Of a DNA stretch of 64,000 bases, positions 1 to 64,000 are shown in pieces. The notes under the pieces are model-generated. The model made no database searches, was not told the origin of the DNA, and saw nothing but the letters and a program-made list of their open reading frames with translations. Made by a program: the position numbers and the translations under genes. Position 1 is the stretch's first letter; every line of letters begins with the position of its first letter. The stretch is from an uncultured Akkermansia sp. Its GTDB lineage: Bacteria; Bacteroidota; Bacteroidia; B-17B0; Aurantibacillaceae. Where the stretch lies: contig CAZAPH010000002.1 in NCBI GenBank assembly GCA_964487105.1, positions 9,125 through 73,124 of the forward strand. The letters run 5' to 3'.

Positions 1-2269
1 TATCTCTTAATTTTAAGAAATCAACGAATGTTTTTTCAAGCTCTATTGATGTAAGTTGGATTTTAGGAATTGCGTTTGGTGTTTTAAATTCATTTAAATT
101 CAGTTTTGTTAAGGCTTTACCTGTACCCCACCAAATATTATTTTTATTATCTATACAAATACTGTTTCTCATAAAATCATTTGCTTTTAATCCTTCTTCA
201 GTATTATAATTAAATATTTTATAATTGTTTTTCTCTTTTATCAAAAGGTTTAATCCAAACTCTGTTGTAATCCAAAAATTATTTTCTTTATCTTGAGTTA
301 TTGATTTTATAGTGTTGTTACTTAAATTGTTTTTAGTGTCTATTATTGTTATTTTTGGATTAGCCGTGCCTATTGTTTTAGCATCAAGAATACTAATTCC
401 ATTGTTATTTCCTCCAAACCATATATTTCCTTCATTATCTTTAAAAACACAGTTTATTTTATTATCTGAAAGACCAGATTTTGTTGTGTACCATTTTAAA
501 AATTCTCCATCATAACAACACGCACCGGCTCCTTCTGTAGCTATCCAAATATTTTTATTATTGTCTTGTGTTATTCCATTAACTATAGCGGATGTTAAAT
601 CTTCATCGTCAATAAAACTTATAATTTGTGAGCCATTAAACCCACAAACTCCACCCTCATCTGTTCCAAACCAAATTACACCATTTTTATCTTTATACGA
701 GCACCTAATATAATCGCTAGTTAAACCTTGTTCTGTAGTATATGATTCAAAAGTAGAGCCGTTAAATTTAACTATTCCGTTTTGTTCTGTACCTAACCAA
801 GTTATATTACTATCATTTATAATAGTCATTATTCTATTACTTGGTAAGCCTTCTTTTTCTGTAAAATGTAAAAACGATTTGCCATCGTGATAAATTAAAC
901 CATCACCAAATGTTCCAAAAATTATGTTATTATTACTATCCTGTGAGATGCCCCTTACTGTATTATTTACAAAACCTTCGTTGGCAGTATAATGTATAAA
1001 AGAGTTTGTTTTTAATTTACACAAACCTCCTCCATAAGTTGCCATCCAAATATTATTAGATAAATCTTTTGCAATACTTAAAATATAATTATTGGTTAGA
1101 CCTTGTTCATTGGTATAACTTGTAATTTCTGAATTGGTATATTTACACAAACCTTTATCATAAGTTCCAATCCATAATGTGTTTTTATCCGTTAATAACG
1201 ATACAACACAGTTACTAGTTAAACCTCTTTTTTGAGTAATGTATTTAAATATTTTACCATCAAAAACATTAACTCCACCATCTTCTGTACCAAAGTATAA
1301 TATTCCGTTTTCATCTTCTGCTATGGCATGAATTATACTACTATTTAATCCTATACGTTCAGTATAATATTCGAAAGATTTTCCATTAAACTTACAAGCG
1401 CCCGAACCGGTTGTGCCAAACCAAATGTTTCCTTTTTTATCTTGTTTAATGCAACGAACCATGTTATTGCTTAACCCTTCGTTTTCTGTATATGGTGTTA
1501 AACTTTTACCATCATAACAATATGCTCCTCCACCATTTGTTCCAATCCAAATATTACCTTTATTGTCTTCTGTTATAGCAAGTACCGTATTATCGCCTAA
1601 ACCATTATCTGAAGTTAAGGCGTTAAAATTTTTTCCATCAAACCAACATACCCCCCCACCTTCTGTTCCAAACCAAATATTACCTTTACTGTCTTCAAAA
1701 ATAGTTAAAATGGTGTTGTTGCAAAGACCGTTATTAATCGTATAATTTAAAAAGGTTTCTCCGTCATACTTACAAACTCCCGCACCGTTAGACCCTATCC
1801 ATATATTATTGTTTTTGTCCACTATTACACTTTTTAATCTAGATGCTAAAAGCCCCTGATCAACATCAACATATTGTATGTTATACGAAGACGCATCTTT
1901 AAACCTAGGTGGCAATGCTTTAATCGGATGAGGTTGCTTACAAAGGGTTGTTTTAGGAGTTACAGTAAAGGAGGTTAGTTTTTTTAAAGTGTCTTCTCCA
2001 GGGGTTGTTATATATAAATCATTTAAAATATCAAAAGCTGTTAAATCGTTAATTGTAACCACATTTGAATTTGTAATAAAATTTAATGGATTAGAGGCTT
2101 TTGTAATTGTTGGTTTGCCGGCTGTTTTAATATCTAATTTAGCTCTGCGTACTTTTATTACCGCTTTATTTTTGTTTTGTGTTTCAGTAACAACTTCATT
2201 TTTATTATCATTTGAGCAAGAATAAAAAACAACAAGTACTATTAAACGTATTAAAAATTGAATTCTCAT
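1..2269 (-). CDS. Two-component regulator beta-propeller (Reg_prop repeat) sensor, probable lipoprotein; runs off the window start
   Basis: Not in the ORF track. ATG at 2269 reads MRIQFLIRLIVLVVFYSC (lipobox-like), followed by many 'DxKGNIWxGTxGGGV...GL' repeats. Confidence 0.85.
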   Translation of the reverse strand, partial: MRIQFLIRLIVLVVFYSCSNDNKNEVVTETQNKNKAVIKVRRAKLDIKTAGKPTITKASNPLNFITNSNVVTINDLTAFDILNDLYITTPGEDTLKKLTSFTVTPKTTLCKQPHPIKALPPRFKDASSYNIQYVDVDQGLLASRLKSVIVDKNNNIWIGSNGAGVCKYDGETFLNYTINNGLCNNTILTIFEDSKGNIWFGTEGGGVCWFDGKNFNALTSDNGLGDNTVLAITEDNKGNIWIGTNGGGAYCYDGKSLTPYTENEGLSNNMVRCIKQDKKGNIWFGTTGSGACKFNGKSFEYYTERIGLNSSIIHAIAEDENGILYFGTEDGGVNVFDGKIFKYITQKRGLTSNCVVSLLTDKNTLWIGTYDKGLCKYTNSEITSYTNEQGLTNNYILSIAKDLSNNIWMATYGGGLCKLKTNSFIHYTANEGFVNNTVRGISQDSNNNIIFGTFGDGLIYHDGKSFLHFTEKEGLPSNRIMTIINDSNITWLGTEQNGIVKFNGSTFESYTTEQGLTSDYIRCSYKDKNGVIWFGTDEGGVCGFNGSQIISFIDDEDLTSAIVNGITQDNNKNIWIATEGAGACCYDGEFLKWYTTKSGLSDNKINCVFKDNEGNIWFGGNNNGISILDAKTIGTANPKITIIDTKNNLSNNTIKSITQDKENNFWITTEFGLNLLIKEKNNYKIFNYNTEEGLKANDFMRNSICIDNKNNIWWGTGKALTKLNLNEFKTPNAIPKIQLTSIELEKTFVDFLKLRD

Positions 2270-2274
2270 TTCTA

Positions 2275-3363
2275 TTAATTAATAAAAATACAATTAAATT
2301 TTTGTTTATCAAACTCTTTCCCATTAACTATTAACGCTATAAAATGCTGTCCCTCATAATAACGACGAGTACTTAAAGGTTTAAAGCTGTGTTTTTTATT
2401 AAAAAATAGTTTTTCGTTAGAGTTTATTTTTCGTTCACTTATTTTAAAAACTTTTTTATTATGTTTATTATTAGAGATTTTAAAATATATTGCGTATTCT
2501 ATCCGAATATTAGTTGGTTTTAACGAATTGTTTACTAACTGAAAACTAAATTCAAGATTGTTGCCAATTTTTATTTGATTATTTTTTAAATTAAATAAAG
2601 AGACTTTTATAAGTTTGTTTTCTTTAACACCAAAGTGTTGTAACGCTTTTTGATTTCCTTGTTTTAATAGTGTACGTGCGCCATGTTTTAAAATCCAATT
2701 AGTGTTAATGTTATCGCTTTTCCATTCTTTTAAAATTTGTAAAACTAGCTCAGGGTTTTCTTTTGAGTAATCGTTAATATGATTGGCAACTGATTTTTTT
2801 ACATACAACTCATCATCTTCTTTTAAAATTTCAAGTATTGGTAATGTAAGATGCGGATTTTTAATTACTTCATCTAACTTAAACGACCATGGCAAACGCG
2901 GACGACACCCTTCGCTAGCTAAACGACGAACATGTGTGTTTTGGTTCTTTGCCCAGCTTTTCATCACTTTTAAAGTTGCTTGAAAATCTTTTTTTAAAAA
3001 AACACGAATTGCAAACTCTGAACTTCCAAATTGTGTAAAATAACTTAATGCTTCTAAAGAAAGATTAAAATCGTTTAAACCGTATAAACCAACATAATCA
3101 GGAAAAATTAAATTAGTATATCCATTTTTAAATTTTGGTGCTACTTGTTTTAAAACAGAAACACTTTCTTTATAATTATTAGGCAAGTACTTATTTAATG
3201 TTACGGTTGTGTGTCGAAGCCTTGCGTTTAACTCTCTGTTTTCTATTCCCTTTAACACATCGGATAAAAACCCTTTATCGTTAAAATTTTTTAATATACT
3301 TTTAATCTCTTTTGCAAGCGATAAATAGTAAACTTTATTAAACATTTCCTTTAGGGGTTCCAT
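2275..3363 (-). CDS. DNA alkylation repair protein (AlkC/AlkD-like HEAT repeat)
   Basis: SSEFAIR, HVRRLASEGCRPRLPW and YVKKSVANHIND motifs. Confidence 0.85.
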   Translation of the reverse strand: MEPLKEMFNKVYYLSLAKEIKSILKNFNDKGFLSDVLKGIENRELNARLRHTTVTLNKYLPNNYKESVSVLKQVAPKFKNGYTNLIFPDYVGLYGLNDFNLSLEALSYFTQFGSSEFAIRVFLKKDFQATLKVMKSWAKNQNTHVRRLASEGCRPRLPWSFKLDEVIKNPHLTLPILEILKEDDELYVKKSVANHINDYSKENPELVLQILKEWKSDNINTNWILKHGARTLLKQGNQKALQHFGVKENKLIKVSLFNLKNNQIKIGNNLEFSFQLVNNSLKPTNIRIEYAIYFKISNNKHNKKVFKISERKINSNEKLFFNKKHSFKPLSTRRYYEGQHFIALIVNGKEFDKQKFNCIFIN

Positions 3364-3369
3364 AAAGAC

Positions 3370-6030
3370 TTAAACTAAAGCATTTAATTGTTCTTTTATG
3401 GCCTTAATTTTAGTTTCAGCATCTGCTTTCTTTTTATTTTCTGAAGCTAAAATTTCGGGTTTTGCATTTGCAACAAACTTTTCGTTACTCAATTTTTTCA
3501 TTACACTTTCTAAAAAGCCAATATTGTAATTTAATTCTTTTTCTAAACGTGCGCGTTCTTCGGCAACGTTTATGTTTGTTGAAAGCGGTATAAAAAACTC
3601 CGTTGTTTTTATTTGAAACGCAAACGCACCTTCTATTTTTTCTTTAGTATAATTAAACTTAGATAAGTTTGCCAGCTTTATTATCGTATCATCAAAATAG
3701 GAATTTGTTGCTTCTGATTTTTCAAACACTTCTAATTTTTCTTTAGGCGAAATTTGTTTTTGTGCACGCACATTTCTTACAGTTGCTACTAATTCTTTTG
3801 CAACTTCAAACTCGACTAATAATTTATTGTCTGTTTTACTTATAGTTGGCCAATTTGCAATTATTATACACTCTTTTTCTGTTCGTGTTGAAATTAAATG
3901 CCAAATTTCTTCGGTAATAAAAGGCATCCACGGGTGCATAATTTTTAATAACTGTTCTAAGAAATTAATTGTAGCATCATACGTTGTTTTATCAATTGGT
4001 TGTGCTTTACCATCAATAAATTCGGGTTTAATAGCTTCCAAATACCAGGCGCAAAAATCATCCCACACTAATTTATAGGTTGTCATTAACGCATCGCTCA
4101 TGCGGTATTTTGAATAATGCTCATTAATAATTTCTAATTGTTCCGATAATCTATTTCCAAACCATGTTATTGCTGCTTTTGATGATTGTGGTTGTTCCAT
4201 CTCGACTCCGTTCGATGTGACAGAGGCTACCTCAAACCCTTTAATTAAGCGGAATGCATTCCATACTTTATTTGCAAAGTTTCTGCCTTGCTCGCAATAA
4301 CTTTCATCAAACATTAAATCGTTACCCGCTGGCGAGCATAACAACATACCAACGCGCACACCATCTGCGCCATATTTTTCAATTAACTCTAATGGGTCAG
4401 GAGAGTTTCCTAAACTCTTACTCATTTTACGGCCAAGTTTATCGCGAACAATTCCCGTTAAATAAACATTGGTAAAAGGTTTTTGTCCTGTATATTCTTT
4501 CCCTGCAATAATCATACGCGCTACCCAAAAAAATAAAATTTCGGGTGCGGTAACTAAATCATTTGTTGGGTAATAGTATTTTAAATCGGCATTGGCTTTA
4601 TCCCAACCATTTTTAATTATGTTTGCATCAAAAACAGTTAATGGCCATAACCACGATGAAAACCAAGTATCGAGAACATCTTCATCTTGTTTTATGTTTT
4701 CGCTTTTAACTTCTGCATTTAAACTTTTAAATTTTTCAAATGCTTCCTCTTTTGTTTTCGCAACTACGGTATTCCCATTACCATCATACCAAGCAGGAAT
4801 GCGTTGTCCCCACCATAATTGGCGACTAATACACCAATCGTGTACATTTTCCATCCAATGCTTGTAGGTATTTATAAATTTTTCGGGAATTAATTTTACT
4901 TCGTTATTTAACACAGCCTCTAAAGCGGGTTTGCTAACGGTATCCATTTTTAAGAACCATTGCATGCTTAGGCGAGGTTCTATAATAGCATCAGTTCGTT
5001 CACTATGCCCATCTTAGTTTTTTATAGTTTCTACTTTAGTAACAAAGCCTTGTTCTTGTAAATCTTTTATAATTTGTTTTCTGCAGGTAAATCTATCCAT
5101 GCCAACATAAATTTGGGCTGCTTCGCTAATTTTACCCTCTTGTGTTAAGCCGTCAATAGTAGGTAAGTTATGTTTTTGTCCTAAATTAAAATCATTAATA
5201 TCGTGTGCTGGTGTTACTTTTAAAGCTCCTGTCCCAAAAGTTGCATCAACATACTCATCAAAAATTAACGGGATAACTTTATTAATTAAAGGAATAATAA
5301 CTTTTTTTCCTTTTAAATGAGTATATCTTTCATCAGTAGGATTTACGCAAACCGCAGTATCTGCCATTATGGTTTCAGGGCGGGTTGTAGCAATGGTTAC
5401 ATGCCCATCTTCACCTTCAATTTTATAATTTATGTAAACCAATTGCGAGTCTTTTTCTTTATAAATCACTTCTTCATCGCTCACGGCAGTTAAGCCTTGG
5501 GGGTCCCAATTTACCATACGAACGCCACGATAAATTTGTCCTTTATTATATAAATCAATAAAAACATCAATTACGGCTTCGCTAAGGGGCTCATCCATAG
5601 TAAATTTTGTGCGGTCCCAATCACAAGAAGCGCCCAGTTTTTTTAATTGCTCAAGAATTATTCCTCCATATTTTTCTTTCCAGTCCCAAGCGTGTTTTAA
5701 AAAATCTTCGCGCGATAAATCTTTTTTACTTATCCCTTTTTCTTTTAATAAAGCAACAACTTTTGCTTCGGTTGCAATACTTGCATGGTCGGTACCTGGC
5801 ACCCAACAAGCATTATACCCTAACATACGCGCACGACGAATTAATACATCTTGTATGGTATTGTTTAACATATGGCCCATGTGCAACACCCCTGTTACAT
5901 TAGGAGGAGGGATAACAATAGTATAAGGTGTTCGGTCATCTGGTGTTGATTTAAAAAATTGATACTTTAACCAATGAGGATACCATTTTAATTCGGCTTC
6001 CTTAGGATTATATGTTTTAGCAATTTCCAT
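3370..6030 (-). CDS. valS: Valine--tRNA ligase, interrupted by one in-frame TAA at 5014-5016
   Basis: [28 protein letters not shown] and a C-terminal coiled coil. The two ORF halves share one frame and the intervening codons read [16 protein letters not shown]. Confidence 0.95.
4198..4222 (-). repeat. REP-like element inside the valS coding sequence
   Basis: TGTCACATCGAACGGAGTCGAGATG matches the intergenic TGTCAGGTCGAGCGGAGTCGAGACT at 12919-12943 in 20 of 25 positions. Confidence 0.65.
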
Positions 6031-56964: not shown

Positions 56965-57549
56965 TTATTTAGTTATACTTATTTCTTTTCTTACTCTGCT
57001 TAGGCTTTCTGGAGTAATACCAAGGTATGAAGCAACATAAGTTTGAGGTACACGCATTAAAACATCGGGATAGGTGTTTATAAAATCTAAATAACGCTCT
57101 TTAGCTGTTTTACTTTGTAGTTGTGTAATGCGTTTTTGTAAGCTGGCAATGTGTTTGTGTAATAATTGAATATTAAAATTTAAAAAGAGCGAATTGGTTA
57201 ATGCTAATTTATCAATTAATTCTTTTTCAATTATAAACACCGTTGTGTTTTCAACCGCTTCAATGTAATAGGATGATGGTAAATTAAAACACTCGCCCTC
57301 TCTGTTGGCCATAAACCAATTTTCAGGAGCAAATTGTATAATATGTTCTTTTCCTTTATCATCAATAGAGAATTGTCGTAATAAACCATCTTCAACAAAG
57401 TATGATTTTTTACTTAACTCGCCCTCACGCAACAAAAATTCTCCTTTTTTATAATGTTGTGTTGCGCAATTGTTTAATAGTTCTTTATTTATTAATTCTA
57501 GCGAGTCAACATTGCTTGTTAGATAAGTTTTAAATCTAAATGTTTTCAT
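56965..57549 (-). CDS. Crp/Fnr family transcriptional regulator
   Basis: cNMP-binding domain and ASYLGITPESLSRVRK HTH. Confidence 0.92.
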   Translation of the reverse strand: MKTFRFKTYLTSNVDSLELINKELLNNCATQHYKKGEFLLREGELSKKSYFVEDGLLRQFSIDDKGKEHIIQFAPENWFMANREGECFNLPSSYYIEAVENTTVFIIEKELIDKLALTNSLFLNFNIQLLHKHIASLQKRITQLQSKTAKERYLDFINTYPDVLMRVPQTYVASYLGITPESLSRVRKEISITK

Positions 57550-58363
57550 TTATTTGTGTTGCTATAAAATTTGGATTTTTTAAATTTTGTTTGTTATAAG
57601 TTAGCGGTAAATTGGTTTCGGTTCTTATAATTGTTCCGTTGGCGTTATTTAAAATACAATGCCCTGCTGCGGTATCCCACTCCATTGTGGTGCCAAACCG
57701 GGGGTATTCGTTAGCTTCACCATCTGCAACTAAACACATTTTTAAACTACTACCAGTATTAATTAAATTTATAGTGCCTTTTTTACTTTCTAATTGTTTT
57801 ATATGGCTATTTAATTCAGTACTTAAATGCGACCTACTTGCAACAACTGTATAATTTTTTGGTTTATTAACCGTTGGAAGTTGTTGAGCAGAATTTAAAA
57901 TTGTTTTAAAGCAATCTAATTTATTAGTATTTATAAGACTTATAACGTTGTGCGGATTAATTTTAAAACTACCTAAACCATTTAACGCAAAAAATAAATT
58001 TTTAAAAACAGGCGAGTAAATTACGCCAATTACCGGCTTATCGTATTCAATTAATGCAATATTTACAGTAAACTCGCCGTTACGTTTTATAAATTCTTTT
58101 GTACCATCTAGGGGGTCTATTAACCAAAGTTTTTGCCAATTTTTTCGTGTTTCATAATTTTCAATATTTTCTTCTTCGCAAATAAAAGGAATATTAAAGC
58201 TAGAGAGAGAATTTATAATTGATTTTGATGCCGCCTTATCTGCTAGGGTTACAGGCGTGTTATCTAGTTTAATTTCAACCTTAAAATTAGTATCGTAAAT
58301 TTTTAAAATGTCGTGGCCAGCATTTATTGCCGCCTTAATTGCGCTATGGAGTAGTTCGTTCAT
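57536..58363 (-). CDS. cysQ: 3'(2'),5'-bisphosphate nucleotidase CysQ
   Basis: WLIDPLDGTKEFI, GSSLK and EWDTAAG motifs. Confidence 0.95.
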   Translation of the reverse strand: MNELLHSAIKAAINAGHDILKIYDTNFKVEIKLDNTPVTLADKAASKSIINSLSSFNIPFICEEENIENYETRKNWQKLWLIDPLDGTKEFIKRNGEFTVNIALIEYDKPVIGVIYSPVFKNLFFALNGLGSFKINPHNVISLINTNKLDCFKTILNSAQQLPTVNKPKNYTVVASRSHLSTELNSHIKQLESKKGTINLINTGSSLKMCLVADGEANEYPRFGTTMEWDTAAGHCILNNANGTIIRTETNLPLTYNKQNLKNPNFIATQINENI

Positions 58364-58405
58364 TAAAATGGTTAATTTTGTAAATTAATTTTAGTTAGGG
58401 TTTAT

Positions 58406-59818
58406 ATGAGCAAGATAAAGAAAAATTATATTATAAACGATTTAGAAGTGGTTGATATAAGCACAGAAGGTAAAGCCATTGCCAAACAAGATGGCTTGGT
58501 TGTGTTTATAGAAGGAGCTGTTCCTGGCGATAGGGTTGATGTAATGGTACATCGAAAAAAAAACAGTTTTGCCGAAGGAAAGGTTTATCAAATTAATAAA
58601 TTTTCAGAAGATAGGGTGGAGCCTGCGTGCAAACACTTTGGCACATGTGGCGGTTGCAAATGGCAAAATTTTAATTACTCAAAACAATTGTATTTTAAAC
58701 AAAAATATGTTTTTGATGCTTTTACAAGAATTGGAAAATTAGAGTTTGATGAAATTAAGCCTATACTCGGAAACAAAGAAAAATATTATTATAGAAACAA
58801 ATTAGAATTTTCTTTTTCAAACAAAAAATGGCTTACCAATGATGAAATAAAAAATGCTGAACAAATAGAAAATAAAAACGCGCTTGGGTTTCATATACCC
58901 GGTTTGTTTGATAAGGTGTTGGATATTGAACATTGTTTTTTACAAAAAGGATTAAGTAATGAGATAAGAAATTCTATTAAGCAATATGCGTTACAAAACA
59001 ATTTAAGCTTTTTTCAAATTAGAGACAAACAAAATTTTTTACGCACCTTAATGATACGTACTACAAGTACAGGCGAAACCATGGTGGTGTTAAGCGTTTT
59101 TGAATATTTAGAAAACGAATTGTTTAAGCTTTTAAATTATATTAAAAATAATTTTCCAACTATAACAAGCCTACAATATACTCATAATCCAAAAGGTAAT
59201 GATACTTTAAACGATTTAGAGTTACACACCTTTTATGGCACGCCTTATATTACAGAGCAAATGGAAGGCTTAAAATTTAGAATAAGTGCAAAAAGTTTTT
59301 ATCAAACCAATTCTGAACAAGCTTTTGAACTTTACAAAATTACAAGAGATTTTGCGGGATTGAAAGGAAATGAAACCGTGTATGATTTATATACAGGCAC
59401 CGGAACTATAGCAAACTTTATTGCAAGGTTTTGTAAAAAAGTTATTGGAATTGAATATGTTGAAGATGCAATTAGCGATGCAAAAGTAAATTCAGAAATT
59501 AATCAAATAACCAACACAAGTTTTTTTGCCGGCGACATGAAAAATGTTTTAAACGAGCAATTTATAAATACGCATGGGCAACCAGATGTGGTAATAACAG
59601 ATCCACCAAGAGCCGGTATGGCGCCCGAGGTAGTTGAGGTTTTATTAAAGGTAAAACCAAAAAAAATCGTTTACGTTAGCTGCAACCCAAGCACACAAGC
59701 CCGAGATTTGGATTTAATGCGTAACGTGTATAAAATAATTAAAACACAACCTGTTGATATGTTTCCGCAAACAGCACATGTAGAAAATGTTGTGTTGCTT
59801 GAAATTATAAATAAATAA
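58406..59818 (+). CDS. rlmD: 23S rRNA m5U1939 methyltransferase
   Basis: TRAM domain, C.HFG.CGGC, SFYQTN, DPPRAG and YVSCNP motifs. Confidence 0.93.
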   Translation: MSKIKKNYIINDLEVVDISTEGKAIAKQDGLVVFIEGAVPGDRVDVMVHRKKNSFAEGKVYQINKFSEDRVEPACKHFGTCGGCKWQNFNYSKQLYFKQKYVFDAFTRIGKLEFDEIKPILGNKEKYYYRNKLEFSFSNKKWLTNDEIKNAEQIENKNALGFHIPGLFDKVLDIEHCFLQKGLSNEIRNSIKQYALQNNLSFFQIRDKQNFLRTLMIRTTSTGETMVVLSVFEYLENELFKLLNYIKNNFPTITSLQYTHNPKGNDTLNDLELHTFYGTPYITEQMEGLKFRISAKSFYQTNSEQAFELYKITRDFAGLKGNETVYDLYTGTGTIANFIARFCKKVIGIEYVEDAISDAKVNSEINQITNTSFFAGDMKNVLNEQFINTHGQPDVVITDPPRAGMAPEVVEVLLKVKPKKIVYVSCNPSTQARDLDLMRNVYKIIKTQPVDMFPQTAHVENVVLLEIINK

Positions 59819-59885
59819 GGTAATTAATATTACTTGAAATAACGTTAAAATAAGTATATTTGGTAATTCACTAATTAATTTAAAA

Positions 59886-60362
59886 ATGAAAAAAATTTTA
59901 TTGATAGCTTTGGTTTTAGGATTTTTTAGTTGTTCAAACCCAACAAAAACCGAACTTTTAGATTATGTAAATAATAAAATTATTGTTGCCTCTGGTTGGG
60001 AAACAAAAGCCATTAGAGCCTATGAGCAGGTAAGCGGTACAAATTATAAAAACGATTCGCTTATGTATTTAACAATACAATCAGACGTTAAGCCTAATTA
60101 CACAACCTTTTGTAAAGAGTTGCAAAAATTTCAAACAGAATTAACACAACCCGAAATTAGTAATTTAAATAAAAAATATATTGAAGGCGCAAACTTACAA
60201 CTAAAAGGGTTTGAATTAATTTCGGAAGCTTTAGAAAAGCAAGATACAGCCTTAATTATTAATGCAAATGAATGTTTAACCAAAGGTAGAGTTTTAATTG
60301 AAGAGTGGCGTGTTGGGTTAGATAGTGTTTGTAAAAAATATGATATTACGCTTACAAAGTAA
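59886..60362 (+). CDS. Lipoprotein, hypothetical
   Basis: Lipobox FFSC; helical body. Confidence 0.75.
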   Translation: MKKILLIALVLGFFSCSNPTKTELLDYVNNKIIVASGWETKAIRAYEQVSGTNYKNDSLMYLTIQSDVKPNYTTFCKELQKFQTELTQPEISNLNKKYIEGANLQLKGFELISEALEKQDTALIINANECLTKGRVLIEEWRVGLDSVCKKYDITLTK

Positions 60363-60365
60363 TTA

Positions 60366-61079
60366 ATGAGTAAAAAAAATATAGTTGTTTTTACTGGTGC
60401 AGGAGTAAGTGCAGATAGTGGAATAAAAACGTTTAGAGATGCTGATGGCTTATGGGAAAACCATAAAGTAGAAGATGTTGCAACACCCGAAGCTTGGATT
60501 AAAAATAAAGAATTGGTTTTAAAATTTTATAACGAAAGACGAAAACAATTACTTAATGCACAGCCAAACGCTATGCATATATTTATTGCAAGTTTAGAAA
60601 AGGAATATAATGTAAATGTAATTACACAAAATGTTGATGATTTGCATGAGCGTGCTGGCAGTAAAAATGTTTTACACTTACATGGCGAGTTAACTAAAGC
60701 CAGAAGTACAATTAACCCCGAATTAATTTATACAATAAAAAAAGACACCTTAGAGTTAGGAGATTTATGCGAATTAAAATCGCAACTAAGGCCGCACATT
60801 GTTTGGTTTGGCGAAGATGTTCCAGAAATGGACAATGCTTATAAACAAACAGAATTTACGGATTTATTTATTGTGGTTGGTACATCGTTAAGTGTATATC
60901 CAGCAGCAAATTTATTAACCTACGTTAGTGCTTATACACCAAAAATTTTGGTTGACCCCGGAACATTTAATTTAGATTATGTAAAAAATCTAACCCACAT
61001 ACAAGCAACTGCTGCAAATGGTGTAATTGCATTAAACCAAGCAATAGACAAACTATTTAATGTTAAAAGTTTTTTATAA
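60366..61079 (+). CDS. cobB: Sir2-family NAD-dependent deacylase
   Basis: GAGVSADSGIKTFR, TQNVDDLHERAG, HG and GTSL motifs. Confidence 0.93.
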   Translation: MSKKNIVVFTGAGVSADSGIKTFRDADGLWENHKVEDVATPEAWIKNKELVLKFYNERRKQLLNAQPNAMHIFIASLEKEYNVNVITQNVDDLHERAGSKNVLHLHGELTKARSTINPELIYTIKKDTLELGDLCELKSQLRPHIVWFGEDVPEMDNAYKQTEFTDLFIVVGTSLSVYPAANLLTYVSAYTPKILVDPGTFNLDYVKNLTHIQATAANGVIALNQAIDKLFNVKSFL

Positions 61080-61238: not shown

Positions 61239-62285
61239 ATGAATTCACCTCAACTAATTAATCACAAAGGCGAAAGTAGAATAGTTTTTTATTGTGAACA
61301 AAACTCAGAACTAGAAACACAAATTAAGCAGATTAAAGGGCGTAAGTGGAGCGCAACATTAAAAGCTTGGCATATACCAAACAGTAAAGAAAACAGAGAA
61401 CGTTTTTTATTAACCAATAAAACGGCTATTAACGCAGAAAATATAAACACCACAAACACCCAAATAGCTTATTTTACAAAATGGATGAGCACAATAAGAT
61501 ACAGTAAAAACACCATAGATACGTACAGAGAGGCGTTAAAACAATTTTTGCTTTATTATCAAAACACACCAATTAATGAAATTAGTAACCAACACGTAAT
61601 TAATTTTAATAACGATTATATTATAAAAAACAAACTATCAACATCCTATCAAAATCAAATAATAAACGCCATAAAATTATATTTTAAAAAAATAGAAAAT
61701 AAAAAACTCGAAATTGATAACATTCAAAGACCAAAGCGCGAAAAAAAATTACCTAATGTATTAAGTAAAGCTGAGGTAAAATTAATTTTAACAGCACACG
61801 CCAATTTAAAACACAAAACCATGTTAAGTTTAATATATAGTTGTGGTTTAAGGTGTGGCGAATTACTTAATTTAAAAGTAGGAGATATTGATTCGAAAAG
61901 AAACTTAGTTATTATAAAGTTGGCCAAAGGCAAAAAAGATAGAATTGTGCCATTGAGCAATTCAATTTTAGTAATGTTAAGAGAATATTATACGGTTTAT
62001 AAACCATTAAATTGGTTGTTTGAAGGGCAGGTTAAAGGCACGCAATATGATGCCAGGAGCCTGCAACAAGTATTAAAACAAAGTTTACTAAAAACAAAAA
62101 TAGTAAAGCCCGTAACCTTACATTGGTTAAGACACAGTTATGCCACACATTTATTAGAATCTGGTACAGATTTACGCTATATACAAGAATTATTGGGCCA
62201 TAATAGTAGTAAAACCACCGAAATTTATACACACGTAAGTACAAACGCAATACAAAATATAGTATCGCCGTTTGATACTTTATAA
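61239..62285 (+). CDS. Tyrosine recombinase, integron-integrase-like
   Basis: SAM-like N-domain, LPNVLS, GLR, KGKKDR, HWLRHSYATHLLE, LGH and TEIYTH motifs. Confidence 0.93.
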   Translation: MNSPQLINHKGESRIVFYCEQNSELETQIKQIKGRKWSATLKAWHIPNSKENRERFLLTNKTAINAENINTTNTQIAYFTKWMSTIRYSKNTIDTYREALKQFLLYYQNTPINEISNQHVINFNNDYIIKNKLSTSYQNQIINAIKLYFKKIENKKLEIDNIQRPKREKKLPNVLSKAEVKLILTAHANLKHKTMLSLIYSCGLRCGELLNLKVGDIDSKRNLVIIKLAKGKKDRIVPLSNSILVMLREYYTVYKPLNWLFEGQVKGTQYDARSLQQVLKQSLLKTKIVKPVTLHWLRHSYATHLLESGTDLRYIQELLGHNSSKTTEIYTHVSTNAIQNIVSPFDTL

Positions 62286-62301
62286 AAAAACATTAAATTT
62301 G
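62271..62301 (+). promoter_or_regulatory. Bacteroidota sigma-A promoter facing the cassette array (Pc analogue)
   Basis: TTTG (62271-62274), 19 nt, TAAATTTG (62294-62301). Confidence 0.65.
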
Positions 62302-62354
62302 AATAACGCTAAAAACATTCGCCTATACAACCAACGGTTATTATAAAGGGAATA

Positions 62355-62384
62355 TTTTTATCGAGTATAAACAAGTTATGTGTA
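62355..62384 (+). other. attI-like site; core GTTATGTGTA at 62375
   Basis: Base composition changes here, and the 10-mer is the exact reverse complement of 63521-63530. Confidence 0.7.
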
Positions 62385-62392
62385 ATTAAGAC

Positions 62393-63511
62393 ATGGGAAA
62401 AAAGCCAGTCAGAGAATTAAAAACCATTCCAGTAATAATTGGAAATTGCGCACCATTTCGACTTGTGCTAAGAGACGGAGACATATGGAATCCGACTTTG
62501 GAGCAAATAAATAATAGAACGTACGATTACGTCAAGCTGAATAGAATGTCGACCTATGTTGACATCGGAATCAATCCATTTTCCCTTGGAATAGGCTTCG
62601 ATGGCAGTCTCATTTTGCCAGCAGTTCCAGATTATGCTTCACGTGAGCAAGCGCTCAATAAATTCAATGAAACATTAGGAATATTAATGCTTGGCGGCAT
62701 TTATTCCGAAGCTGTACATCCAACAGACATAAGTTATGGTAGCTTAACCCTTGACGGATATGTGCGATTTCATGGAGGAAGTGGCTCTTTAGCAGAGTTT
62801 CATTCCTCTATTCGATCTAAAATCATCGGCGCTCTTGGTGCAATTCGATTACTTAACCCCCAAGAAATATCGATTGCCGAATTTGAGGATTCCTATAAAA
62901 AAGGTAAAGAAATTTTTCAGAAAATAAAAGATTTGAATCCCAGTTTACTTCTCGGAGGGACTTCAAAGTTTGTAACTCATGAGTGGGCAGAAAGTCTAAT
63001 TTTCTTGTGGACATCAATAGAGCAAATAATAAATATACTTTGGAAAAGACACATGCTTGACATTTCAACCAAGATAAAAATTGAAGGCAGGAAAGATTTT
63101 CTTAAAGATCACAGAACGTGGACAAGTTCAAACAAAATCGAAATGTTGTATCAAAAAGCCGTTATACCTATTGAATTATACGACTTGCTAAACAATGCTA
63201 GGAAAACAAGAAATGAATTTATTCATAGCGCAAAAAGACTTGAAATGAAAAATGTTAAGCCAGCGCTTGAAGGTTTGTTTAAACTCATTTCCATAATAAT
63301 AAGTGACGGCGCTGAACTAACAAAATTGGATAGCGTTATAGATACAATATATCGAAATCAAAGAGGAGATCTCTTTCCAAAGAAAACAACACTTGGTAAT
63401 CCTGAAGTCACACATTGGATGCCTCTTCCTCCTCTTCCCGGTGACAAAGAATGGTGTAACAAAGAGTACGAAATTATCGACGACCTGATGTTAAGACCTT
63501 TAAAAAAATAA
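62393..63511 (+). CDS. Cassette 1: hypothetical protein with HEPN-like RxxxxH motif
   Basis: LWTSIEQ...RKTRNEFIH; codon usage and GC visibly differ from the flanking genes. Confidence 0.7.
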   Translation: MGKKPVRELKTIPVIIGNCAPFRLVLRDGDIWNPTLEQINNRTYDYVKLNRMSTYVDIGINPFSLGIGFDGSLILPAVPDYASREQALNKFNETLGILMLGGIYSEAVHPTDISYGSLTLDGYVRFHGGSGSLAEFHSSIRSKIIGALGAIRLLNPQEISIAEFEDSYKKGKEIFQKIKDLNPSLLLGGTSKFVTHEWAESLIFLWTSIEQIINILWKRHMLDISTKIKIEGRKDFLKDHRTWTSSNKIEMLYQKAVIPIELYDLLNNARKTRNEFIHSAKRLEMKNVKPALEGLFKLISIIISDGAELTKLDSVIDTIYRNQRGDLFPKKTTLGNPEVTHWMPLPPLPGDKEWCNKEYEIIDDLMLRPLKK

Positions 63512-63520
63512 TCTATTAAC

Positions 63521-63710
63521 TACACATAACAGCACCTACTGGCCATTGGGCAGACGAGGGTCATCGCCGCGCGCTATTAACAAGGTCGCTTCGCGAAATT
63601 TAATTTGCGGCGGCTAAAAAACTTGGGTATCTTTAAATAAACATTTGAGGTTATAGACAGTTGATGCTCCGAAAGCCCAACGGCCAGTAGCCGCCAAACG
63701 TTATGGGCAA
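63521..63710 (+). other. attC-like recombination hairpin
   Basis: TACACATAAC...CTACTGGCCATTGGGC (63536-63551) and GCCCAACGGCCAGTAG (63675-63690)...GTTATGGGC (63700); arms are 15/16 complementary. Confidence 0.8.
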
Positions 63711-63714
63711 CTCT

Positions 63715-64000
63715 ATGAACGACACAGATAAACATAAACTTCGACAGCCAGAACTTGAAGCTGACATCTACTACTTGACTGAACAAGAAGGTGGACGAAA
63801 GACTGCTGTGGGAAATGGTTATCGTGGACAGTTTTACTATAACGGAAAAGACTGGGATGCAACACAACAATTCTTGGACAAGGAAATTTGTAATCCTGGC
63901 GAGACAGTAAAAGTTTATTTGCAAACATTAAGCACAGACTTTCACGTTGGACAATTTTTTGTCGGACAGGAATTTGAAACAAGAGAAGGTGCGAAAACAG
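63715..64000 (+). CDS. Cassette 2: stand-alone EF-Tu domain III-like protein (runs off the window end)
   Basis: MNDTDKHKLRQPELEADIYYLTEQEGGRKTAVGNGYRGQFYYNGKDWDA...CNPGETVKV...EFETREGAKT, resembling EF-Tu FEAxVYxLxKEEGGR...GYRPQF...PGD...FAIREGGRT. Confidence 0.75.
   Translation, partial: MNDTDKHKLRQPELEADIYYLTEQEGGRKTAVGNGYRGQFYYNGKDWDATQQFLDKEICNPGETVKVYLQTLSTDFHVGQFFVGQEFETREGAKT

Follow-up and report, generated by a model that had tools for sequence, protein, structure and literature searches.

An integron-like gene-cassette platform of Bacteroidota headed by a tyrosine recombinase without the IntI-specific insertion

Classical attC sites carry two or three single extrahelical bases, and in the 'inverted' sedentary chromosomal integrons the intI gene reads the same way as its array. 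The specific insertion of the integron recombinase IntI is called defining in a preprint on integrons of Archaea and essential for integron function in PMC8138268. IntegronFinder separates IntI from other tyrosine recombinases by this insertion domain (PMC4889954), and Smyshlyaev et al. describe the insertion as 'not fully conserved' in their integron-like subgroup. For Bacteroidetes, the accessible text on IntegronFinder 2.0 reports only In0 elements and one complete integron, that of Salinibacter. The nearest published Bacteroidota system is rAID-1 (Ross et al. 2019, 10.1101/471110), reported from 226 of 423 Bacteroidales, in which an XerD-like recombinase is accompanied by a co-directional array with repeats 'reminiscent of integrons'. 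Its criteria include a 5' recombinase at least 44% identical to BF9343_RS08045 of B. fragilis and an array with a guanine plus cytosine (GC) content of at most 41%, skewed against the surroundings (10.1101/471110). The present report describes an integron-like locus at positions 61239-64000 of a 64,000-nt stretch of DNA (hereafter the window), which comprises positions 9125-73124 of contig C2 (CAZAPH010000002.1) of a Bacteroidota genome, G000 (200 contigs, 97% complete, 29% GC). The contig continues 1672 nt beyond the window end. This stretch is represented in wastewater and activated-sludge metagenome runs.

The locus comprises, all on one strand, gene cassettes that end in attC-like hairpins and, ahead of them, a tyrosine recombinase gene with a promoter-like box and an attI-like site. 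The first-pass annotation, made from the sequence alone, had taken it for a non-canonical integron-like cassette system. The platform is real; the observation was confirmed and repeated in many other genomes. The locus is very probably an integron-like gene-capture platform, in which the adjacent recombinase, which is not an IntI, likely inserts and excises cassettes at GTT cores.

The recombinase gene is located at 61239-62285 on the plus strand, as are the array features described here; from its open reading frame (ORF) and its family scores it is predicted to encode a cassette integrase of 348 aa. A GTT at 62375-62377 marks the junction of the attI-like site with cassette 1 and is the predicted crossover point; the next bases, ATGTGTA, complement the R'' box of the cassette's own site. 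Cassette 1 has a length of 1325 nt (62376-63700, from the TT of this core through the G of the following GTT) and is delimited by the two GTT cores. Its ORF of 372 aa (62393-63511) begins 18 nt after the core G at 62375. The cassette opens with GTTATGTGTA (62375-62384), and the exact reverse complement, TACACATAAC, is found at 63521-63530, from the 10th nucleotide after the ORF stop. This sequence opens site 1, a 183-nt imperfect hairpin closed by the second GTT (63700). The attC-like site as a whole (63521-63709, 183-nt class) scores 68.4 bits (E 5e-12) with model R1, a covariance model of the bottom strand of the site for which hits were counted at E 1e-3 or better. Its inverted repeat arms, CTACTGGCCATTGGGC ... 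GCCCAACGGCCAGTAG, are followed by GTTATGG at 63700-63706. The GTT at 63700-63702, in the R' box of site 1, is the junction of cassettes 1 and 2, as indicated by the boundary pairing of cassette 2 and by contigs from three other runs. Cassette 2 occupies the remainder of the window (63701-64000); its ORF begins at 63703 and extends 440 nt beyond the window end (245 aa in full, L001 4828-5565). The first core with its ORF, the reverse complement behind that ORF, and the long inverted repeat with a second GTTA core had all been named in the first-pass annotation and are present. The new ORF was there said to start 15 bp past the second core; the ORF exists and begins at 63703, and the distance of 15 bp corresponds to its second ATG, at 63715.

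Further units of ORF plus hairpin had been predicted downstream, and they exist. A second cassette unit lies 0.9 kb further along the same contig, outside the window, and the contig ends within cassette 3. Cassette 2 opens with GTTATGGG, and its own 3' site opens with CCCATAAC, the exact complement over the first eight bases; in cassette 1 the complementarity between start and own site extends over ten bases. Site 2 is a 132-nt hairpin which reads CCCATAAC AGCAC CTACCC..., loop, ...GGGTAG CTGCAAACC GTTACCAC. Common to the ends of sites 1 and 2 are ATAACAGCACCTAC and GTAGCyGC..AAAC.GTTA.

Arrays were compared in up to 60 kb of sequence fetched beside ten proteins 57-68% identical to the recombinase. 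Sites were detected by the pattern AAC, spacer, 12-bp stem ... stem, spacer, GTT, which gives 0-6 hits per region in shuffled sequence. One relative, G035, has 22 sites of ~132 nt in a row within the 20 kb after the recombinase; the following 37 kb hold one additional hairpin, which is not chain-linked (0 of 5 positions). Shorter rows of sites, likewise downstream and on the recombinase strand, are present in G033, G003, G012, G016, G021 and G027. In 43 of 58 neighbouring pairs (ten array regions, nine genomes) the five bases behind a site's GTT are exactly complementary to the five that precede AAC in the following site, a relation here called the chain rule, which also holds for both cassettes at the window locus. 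The R' and R'' boxes within one site mostly match at 0-4 of these 5 positions. The complementarity of a cassette's 5' end to its own 3' site, which had been claimed for the window, is in this way borne out in the relatives. It is the trace that would be expected from cassette circles cut and joined at GTT; by the chain rule, the predicted crossover falls on the 5' side of the base that follows GTT. Among 43 validated cassettes the median length is 998 nt (range 494-4997), and in 40 of them the longest ORF lies on the array strand.

The structure of the sites points to the same reading. Site 1 begins with R'' ACATAAC and spacer AGCAC, continues with a 16-bp stem (one A.C mismatch) and its loop, and closes with spacer CCGCCAAAC and R' GTTATGG; its minus (bottom) strand is predicted to fold and recombine. 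The calculated DNA folds have -37.6 kcal/mol for the bottom strand vs -31.0 for the top strand of site 1, and -21.1 vs -16.3 for site 2; the bottom strand is also the stabler one in 58 of 69 detected sites, a count made with a detector that favoured bottom-strand wobbles. The usual site length is ~132 nt, and the 183-nt site of the window belongs to a minor length class. The bottom strands of 58 sites validated by the chain rule, drawn from 16 loci and all in the main length class, were aligned (alignment A4). RNAalifold gives 23 pairs for these, 18 of them with compensatory changes, and a covariation score of 0.681 vs 0.165 in shuffles (0 of 500 as high); slid controls reach at most 0.139. 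In the consensus structure 94.4% of the cells are paired vs 66.3% in shuffles, a percentage partly built in by the 12-bp stem which the detector demanded; the covariation and the fixed G.T pairs were not built in. Read on the bottom strand, the order is xxxxYAAC-G, a 4-nt bulge, a 3-bp helix, one unpaired base, a ~15-bp stem, a ~75-nt loop, the return strand and T-GTT-Rxxxx. The AAC(G) and (T)GTT boxes are invariant across the 58 sites. G.T wobbles are fixed at two pairs (58 and 56 of the 58 sites) and correspond to A.C mismatches on the top strand; the detector used for this set weighted both kinds of wobble equally. The two strands of the site are built unequal. By analogy with attC, such inequality is a hallmark of single-strand, structure-specific sites and suggests that folding also takes place in the cell.

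Two observations concern the loops and ends of the hairpins. The loops of 183-nt and of some 130-nt sites have conserved sequence in common, TATCTTTAAATAAAC and TTTGTGGT among it (e.g. window 63560-63690; L002 7990-8070; L040 5020-5150). This conservation exceeds the need of a mere spacer, and a promoter into the next cassette is one idea. A separate hairpin of 70 nt, ending in GTTTTTTA, is located at the 5' end of cassette 3 (L001 5888-5957, C2:73887-73956) within a probably spurious ORF of 81 aa. Stretches resembling it directly follow sites in L032, L151 and L031, a 71-nt twin is present in the G033 array, and its depth in sludge contigs is 100-170x. The attI-like site, both attC-like sites and the 70-nt hairpin matched no family in an Rfam scan.

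The recombinase resembles both Xer and IntI proteins. Its NCBIfam scores are 212.9 bits for XerA_Arch (cut-off 220), 204.1 for the integron integrase TIGR02249 (265), 192.3 for XerD (329.6) and 179.3 for XerC (335.15), so that all Xer equivalog cut-offs and that of TIGR02249 are missed. The first-pass annotation had called the system non-canonical, and the failure on the IntI model is in line with this. TIGR02249 is matched in two pieces only (model positions 5-178 and 237-315), and the recombinase fails this model because the IntI-specific insertion is missing. In the alignment with VchIntIA (2a3v), 18 residues of the query (255-272) stand opposite ~60 residues of the chain (185-244); as judged from this alignment, the stretch without counterpart is the IntI-specific insertion, near patch III. 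The same gap, with model positions ~180-236 skipped, is found in five of five array-bearing relatives. An AlphaFold2 (AF2) model of the recombinase (mean predicted local distance difference test score 84.9) has no extra helix at the insertion position; the top Foldseek matches are XerA 5hxy and IntI 2a3v.

The recombinase has an additional N-terminal domain of ~55 aa (61239-61403), delimited from alignments and AF2 secondary structure. Residues 5-55 form strand-strand-helix-strand-strand-helix, with H9, W37, S38 and W44 conserved in array-linked homologues (alignments A1, A2, A5). Aligned PDB chains of IntI, XerD and XerA leave this domain uncovered, their alignments beginning at query residue 71 or later, and no Pfam family matched it. 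In a quick tree (33 rows, long branches), one clade (99) comprises six canonical IntI, the recombinase family (94 in the Shimodaira-Hasegawa-like approximate likelihood ratio test), a second array-linked group and a short array-less group. The two XerC/D-like genes of G000 (on C20 and C113) branch apart from it. The convergence considered possible in the first-pass annotation is not supported by this placement. The branching order inside the clade, including a sisterhood of the family to IntI, is left unresolved by the quick tree. The second recombinase subgroup (L075/G252, L081/G316, L082/G332) is ~45-48% identical and also heads chain-linked arrays, with other spacers in the sites (3-4 / 5-6) and lengths of 130 or 230 nt. 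The G252 recombinase is a complete ORF of 289 aa without the N-terminal domain; the G316 and G332 genes were seen without their 5' ends.

Relatives were collected with the N-terminal 175 residues of the recombinase as query; one genome per species was scanned, and the best 80 of 564 confirmed relatives were kept. By record title these loci belong to Flavobacterium (including F. psychrophilum), Lutibacter, Epilithonimonas, Chitinophaga, Pedobacter, Cytophagales, Sphingobacteriales, Saprospiraceae and Ignavibacteria; a named Bacteroides locus was not found among them, and a further protein search gave only relatives titled 'Bacteroidales bacterium' or 'Chlorobiales bacterium', from metagenome-assembled genomes. 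Model R1 gave 166 hits in these loci (1.06 Mb), all on the minus strand where the recombinase is on the plus strand, and 165 of them downstream of the recombinase; the exception is L103 8615-8746. The arrangement noted in the window, with sites downstream of the recombinase and on its strand, was recovered at homologous recombinases. Among the 27 loci with at least 5 kb downstream, 25 have a hit (21 of 23 without the four model-training loci). Many of the other loci end within ~1 kb of the recombinase gene, as expected if assemblies break at repeated sites. A loose hairpin detector gave 196 plus-strand hits in the 299 kb downstream and 120 in the 679 kb upstream; its specificity was too low, and R1 took its place. 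Its minus-strand hits were nearly as numerous because the pattern is palindromic. In a phylum sample of 401 Bacteroidota genomes, all at least 90% complete, 137 have a recombinase relative at E 1e-45 or better. Most genomes of the genus have a protein with 57-68% identity to the recombinase, and such proteins also occur in other families; in many cases the gene lies at the end of a contig.

The attI-like insertion site is located at 62302-62378 and is composed of two CGCCTATAC / CGAGTATAA boxes and the core TATAAACAAGTTA (62366-62378), which ends at the first cassette. A core of the form TAT[AT]-N3-6-[AT]AGTT[AG] is found ~92 nt past the recombinase stop in 45 of 61 named loci, and near variants were seen by eye in several of the remaining 16. 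The inverted repeat 5' of the core varies between genomes yet stays complementary, and it flanks TACCC...GGGT. In six of nine array loci the start expected for the first cassette was located 27-169 nt past the stop. These sequence features suggest a conserved attI-like entry point beside the recombinase, with a predicted function. The promoter-like TTTG-N19-TAAATTTG that had been noticed after the recombinase is present at 62271-62301, where it overlaps the recombinase stop codon and points into the array; it is a match to the pattern TTTG/TAnnTTTG, the Bacteroidetes promoter consensus. TAnnTTTG is found 8-18 nt past the recombinase stop in 45 of 74 related loci vs 5.6% of random 90-nt windows from the same loci, and the full pattern, with TTTG 17-21 nt upstream of TAnnTTTG, in 16 of 74 vs 0.5% of controls. 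By its place and sequence the box is a candidate counterpart of the integron Pc promoter.

A comparison for variable arrays had been proposed, and cassette 2 is preceded by a different site in samples from elsewhere. The samples are runs of three other studies (X3, X4, X5); the sequences compared are contigs and not reads, and uncovered stretches or contig ends count as no evidence. In all three, the shared sequence with cassette 2 begins at L001 4821, four nucleotides ahead of the GTT in site 1, and the sequence upstream is unlike that of the window. This break near GTT with unlike sequence upstream led to the conclusion that cassette 2 elsewhere follows a different site; the unlike part in X5 ends ...GCCGCGA, resembling the end of another site. 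The X5 contigs cover the backbone up to L001 3504 and leave cassette 1 uncovered; in contig data this gap proves nothing.

Model R1 finds five solid sites in G000. C2 has two of them and C3 has one, close to its start, while C4 and C9 each have a lone site; a sixth, on C84, is marginal. The lone sites (C4:54961-55096, L002 7962-8098; C9:12399-12536, L167 ~4400-4537) are far from the recombinase. Each follows one ORF of raised GC content (167 aa on C4; 279 aa on C9, with 38% GC vs 26-30% around it), and no family was matched by either protein. The expected GTT plus complement was not found upstream of these ORFs, and their left borders were not located. From the sequence, the two look like single cassettes at secondary sites. 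The block C3:1-5900 (L040) has a raised GC content (35-42%) and carries six genes, for an AraC regulator, YceI, a short-chain dehydrogenase/reductase (SDR), a DsbA-like protein, a LigB dioxygenase and a glycine transporter. It ends in a 183-nt site with a loop almost identical to that of site 1, followed by one more small cassette, the last, and then by a large gene in the opposite orientation. Possibly this block is the far end of the window's array across an assembly gap.

In the mechanism proposed for the platform, the bottom strand of the site would fold into the AACG/TGTT box, the 4-nt bulge, the 3-bp helix and the ~15-bp stem with its fixed G.T wobble, and the recombinase would recognise the folded site. 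Two sites would recombine and release a cassette circle, which would enter at the attI (TATAAACAAG|TTA) behind the promoter box. The N-terminal domain, perhaps together with the bulge and the wobbles, may replace the reading of extrahelical bases by the extra domain of IntI.

Like classical integrons, the system has a tyrosine recombinase of the same broad clade, an adjoining attI, and cassettes with a single ORF that look promoterless and lie in one orientation. The attC-type sites are likewise imperfect palindromes with ...AAC and GTT... boxes, the crossover is predicted at GTT, each cassette start complements the site of that same cassette, folding is more favourable for the bottom strand, and arrays comprise 20 cassettes or more. 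It is unlike them in that the recombinase lacks the IntI-specific insertion and has an added N-terminal domain, that its gene is co-directional with the array, with the attI ~90 nt past its stop, that the main class of sites is ~132 nt long with a 4-nt bulge and fixed G.T wobbles, that the promoter box is of the Bacteroidetes type, and that canonical IntI is present in only 1 of 99 sampled genomes of the hosts' class. With Xer proteins (XerC/D, archaeal XerA) the recombinase shares the core-binding and catalytic layout, and XerA is its best NCBIfam score and PDB match; unlike them, it misses the equivalog cut-offs, has the added domain and heads a cassette array. Software that depends on the IntI-specific domain would at most list these arrays as CALINs (attC clusters without an integron integrase), but unlike CALINs they are headed by a conserved recombinase and an attI.

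The rAID-1 system was compared by description only. As in rAID-1, at least two co-directional downstream genes with conserved intergenic repeats are present here. In the accessible parts of its descriptions, rAID-1 is reported only for Bacteroidales and as a store of orphan immunity genes of type VI secretion systems (T6SS), whereas the hosts here are flavobacteria-like and other Bacteroidota and the cargo is mostly without family. The same parts contain no analysis of folding, crossover or cassette boundaries. With regard to the GC criterion of rAID-1, the G000 cassettes lie above their genome (~38 vs 29%), and the G035 array lies below its surroundings (30.2% vs 36.7% in the next 30 kb). A literature search on flavobacteria and Bacteroidota (subscription journals and bioRxiv supplements were outside its range) returned no account of such a system or of its site structure beyond rAID-1.

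Three other explanations were weighed. In a classical integron with its true IntI elsewhere, unassembled or distant, the adjacent recombinase would be a bystander. Such an arrangement could be accommodated by a genome in 200 contigs and 97% complete, and canonical IntI over the TIGR02249 cut-off does occur in 113 of the 401 sampled phylum genomes. Beside five canonical IntI genes, chain-linked sites were clear in two cases, G213 (where the gene is divergent from the array) and G165, and these sites have a similar general build. However, their spacers differ, and R1 gives them at most 27.9 bits vs 30.5-125 for the 166 hits. Of the 113 IntI genomes, 112 lie outside the window's class; in a set of 99 genomes from 19 families labelled as sharing that class, canonical IntI is found in 1 and a recombinase relative in 63. 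A search for proteins over the TIGR02249 cut-off found none in G000, nor in the array-bearing relatives G035, G033, G003, G021 and G016 (99-100% complete, one of them a single contig), and in each of these the best hit was the array-side recombinase. Together with the position of 165 of 166 sites downstream of the recombinase on its strand, and a conserved attI at a fixed distance from its stop, this makes a distant IntI very improbable. As a separate observation, canonical IntI and a recombinase relative occur together in several genomes outside the window's class (e.g. G275, G187, G327), so the two systems may coexist in some genomes.

It is just as improbable that the sites are self-spreading intergenic repeats, such as hairpins of the repetitive extragenic palindrome (REP) or miniature inverted-repeat transposable element (MITE) type or terminators, which undergo no cassette recombination and have an Xer-like gene nearby by chance or for regulation. 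The sites are intergenic hairpins with partly conserved loops, single copies exist elsewhere in the genome, and parts of site 2 and the nearby 70-nt hairpin reach very high depth in sludge contigs. This explanation nevertheless gives no reason why the variable bases that follow GTT should match those of the next site rather than of their own, why the sites keep strictly to one strand and one side of the recombinase, why a conserved attI has the same GTT core, why each unit has one forward ORF, or why cassette 2 occurs behind another site with a break at the core. A double-strand exchange of modules as in Xer/dif systems (dif modules, integrative mobile elements exploiting Xer (IMEX)), with duplex R-box cores and a hairpin potential without a role, is improbable too, if less remote. 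In its favour, the enzyme scores equally on the XerA and IntI models, XerA is among its best solved relatives, and the domain by which IntI handles folded DNA is missing from it. Duplex exchange does not account for R'' and R' boxes which are ~120 nt apart yet complementary within each cassette circle, nor for the covariation of the stem; the G.T wobbles and the 4-nt bulge, which make the strands unequal, would be meaningless for duplex sites, and the sites are direct repeats throughout the arrays.

Several points weigh against the cassette platform itself, in addition to the two effects of the detector named with the folding data. Neither a circle nor a read-level junction of excision or insertion was seen, and on the sequence data the link of the recombinase to the array is one of association only. 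The homologous recombinases of L116 and L143 have no R1 hit. Downstream of short relatives of ~280 aa from one family (G185, G122, G146, G229, G273) neither a site nor a repeat family was found; these belong to another subgroup, and the counts do not include them. The chain rule fails in 15 of the 58 neighbouring pairs, which are probably due to missed or false sites and array ends, an assignment made without case-by-case inspection. The promoter match in the window is by itself at chance level, with 0.71 matches expected per 6.8 kb and at least one match in 103 of 200 shuffles. Finally, the locus has no conserved chromosomal place, and a close strain that would reveal array turnover at the exact locus was not among the genomes compared.

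The tyrosine recombinase had been described as standing beside a housekeeping cobB. The adjacency is correct: a Sir2/CobB-type gene (60366-61079; Pfam SIR2, E 1e-46) ends 160 nt 5' of the recombinase. The name is too specific, as this Sir2-family gene stays below the NCBIfam equivalog cut-offs. A shared cobB-integrase locus was not found in relatives either. In a tblastn search with five upstream proteins, no cobB, rlmD-like or lipoprotein gene was found beside the recombinase in 138 related loci, so that the cobB position is kept in none of them; the closest recombinase is only 68% identical. The genes 5' of cobB (56965-60362) were named from their translations as a Crp-like regulator, a CysQ-like phosphatase, an RlmD-like methyltransferase and a small lipoprotein. 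No mobile genes were seen on reading the translations of this region, for which no family search was made.

The cargo of the G000 cassettes is diverse. The cassette 1 ORF has a weak DUF4145/HEPN-like stretch with RNEFIH (Pfam DUF4145 E 0.0021, sub-threshold; PADLOC CARF_HEPN E 9e-4), no NCBIfam match and no confident family; a role as a defence gene was considered and dropped, all DUF4145/HEPN signals being sub-threshold. The cassette 2 protein has an N-terminal fold like domain 3 of EF-Tu (Pfam GTP_EFTU_D3, E 3e-12 with the full ORF), and cassette 3 carries a family-2 glycosyltransferase. Of 14 ORFs scanned in or beside the G000 cassettes, five have no Pfam family and one has only the sub-threshold DUF4145; no immunity family, by name, was among the families found for them in general family scans.

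Integron biology and the survey tools built on it rest on the IntI-specific domain, and here a recombinase without this domain heads up to 22 cassettes. The balance tips slightly toward a major integron lineage of the Bacteroidota's own. Its recombinase would never have had, or would have lost, the IntI extra domain and would read another structural code, the 4-nt bulge and the fixed G.T wobbles, helped by the new N-terminal domain. The rAID-1 arrays of the gut would then be a branch of this lineage, and the rule of the IntI domain, with the surveys based on it, would miss the main gene-capture device of the phylum. If the recombinase is the catalyst, it would represent a second way to recognise folded recombination sites. 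Environmental and host-associated Bacteroidota would further contain a large stock of cassettes that is still unexplored, and a mechanism could be offered for the rAID-1 arrays, the biogenesis of which is stated to be unknown in the accessible text of a 2025 paper. The system could also be turned into a tool for site-specific insertion in a phylum in which genetic engineering is difficult.

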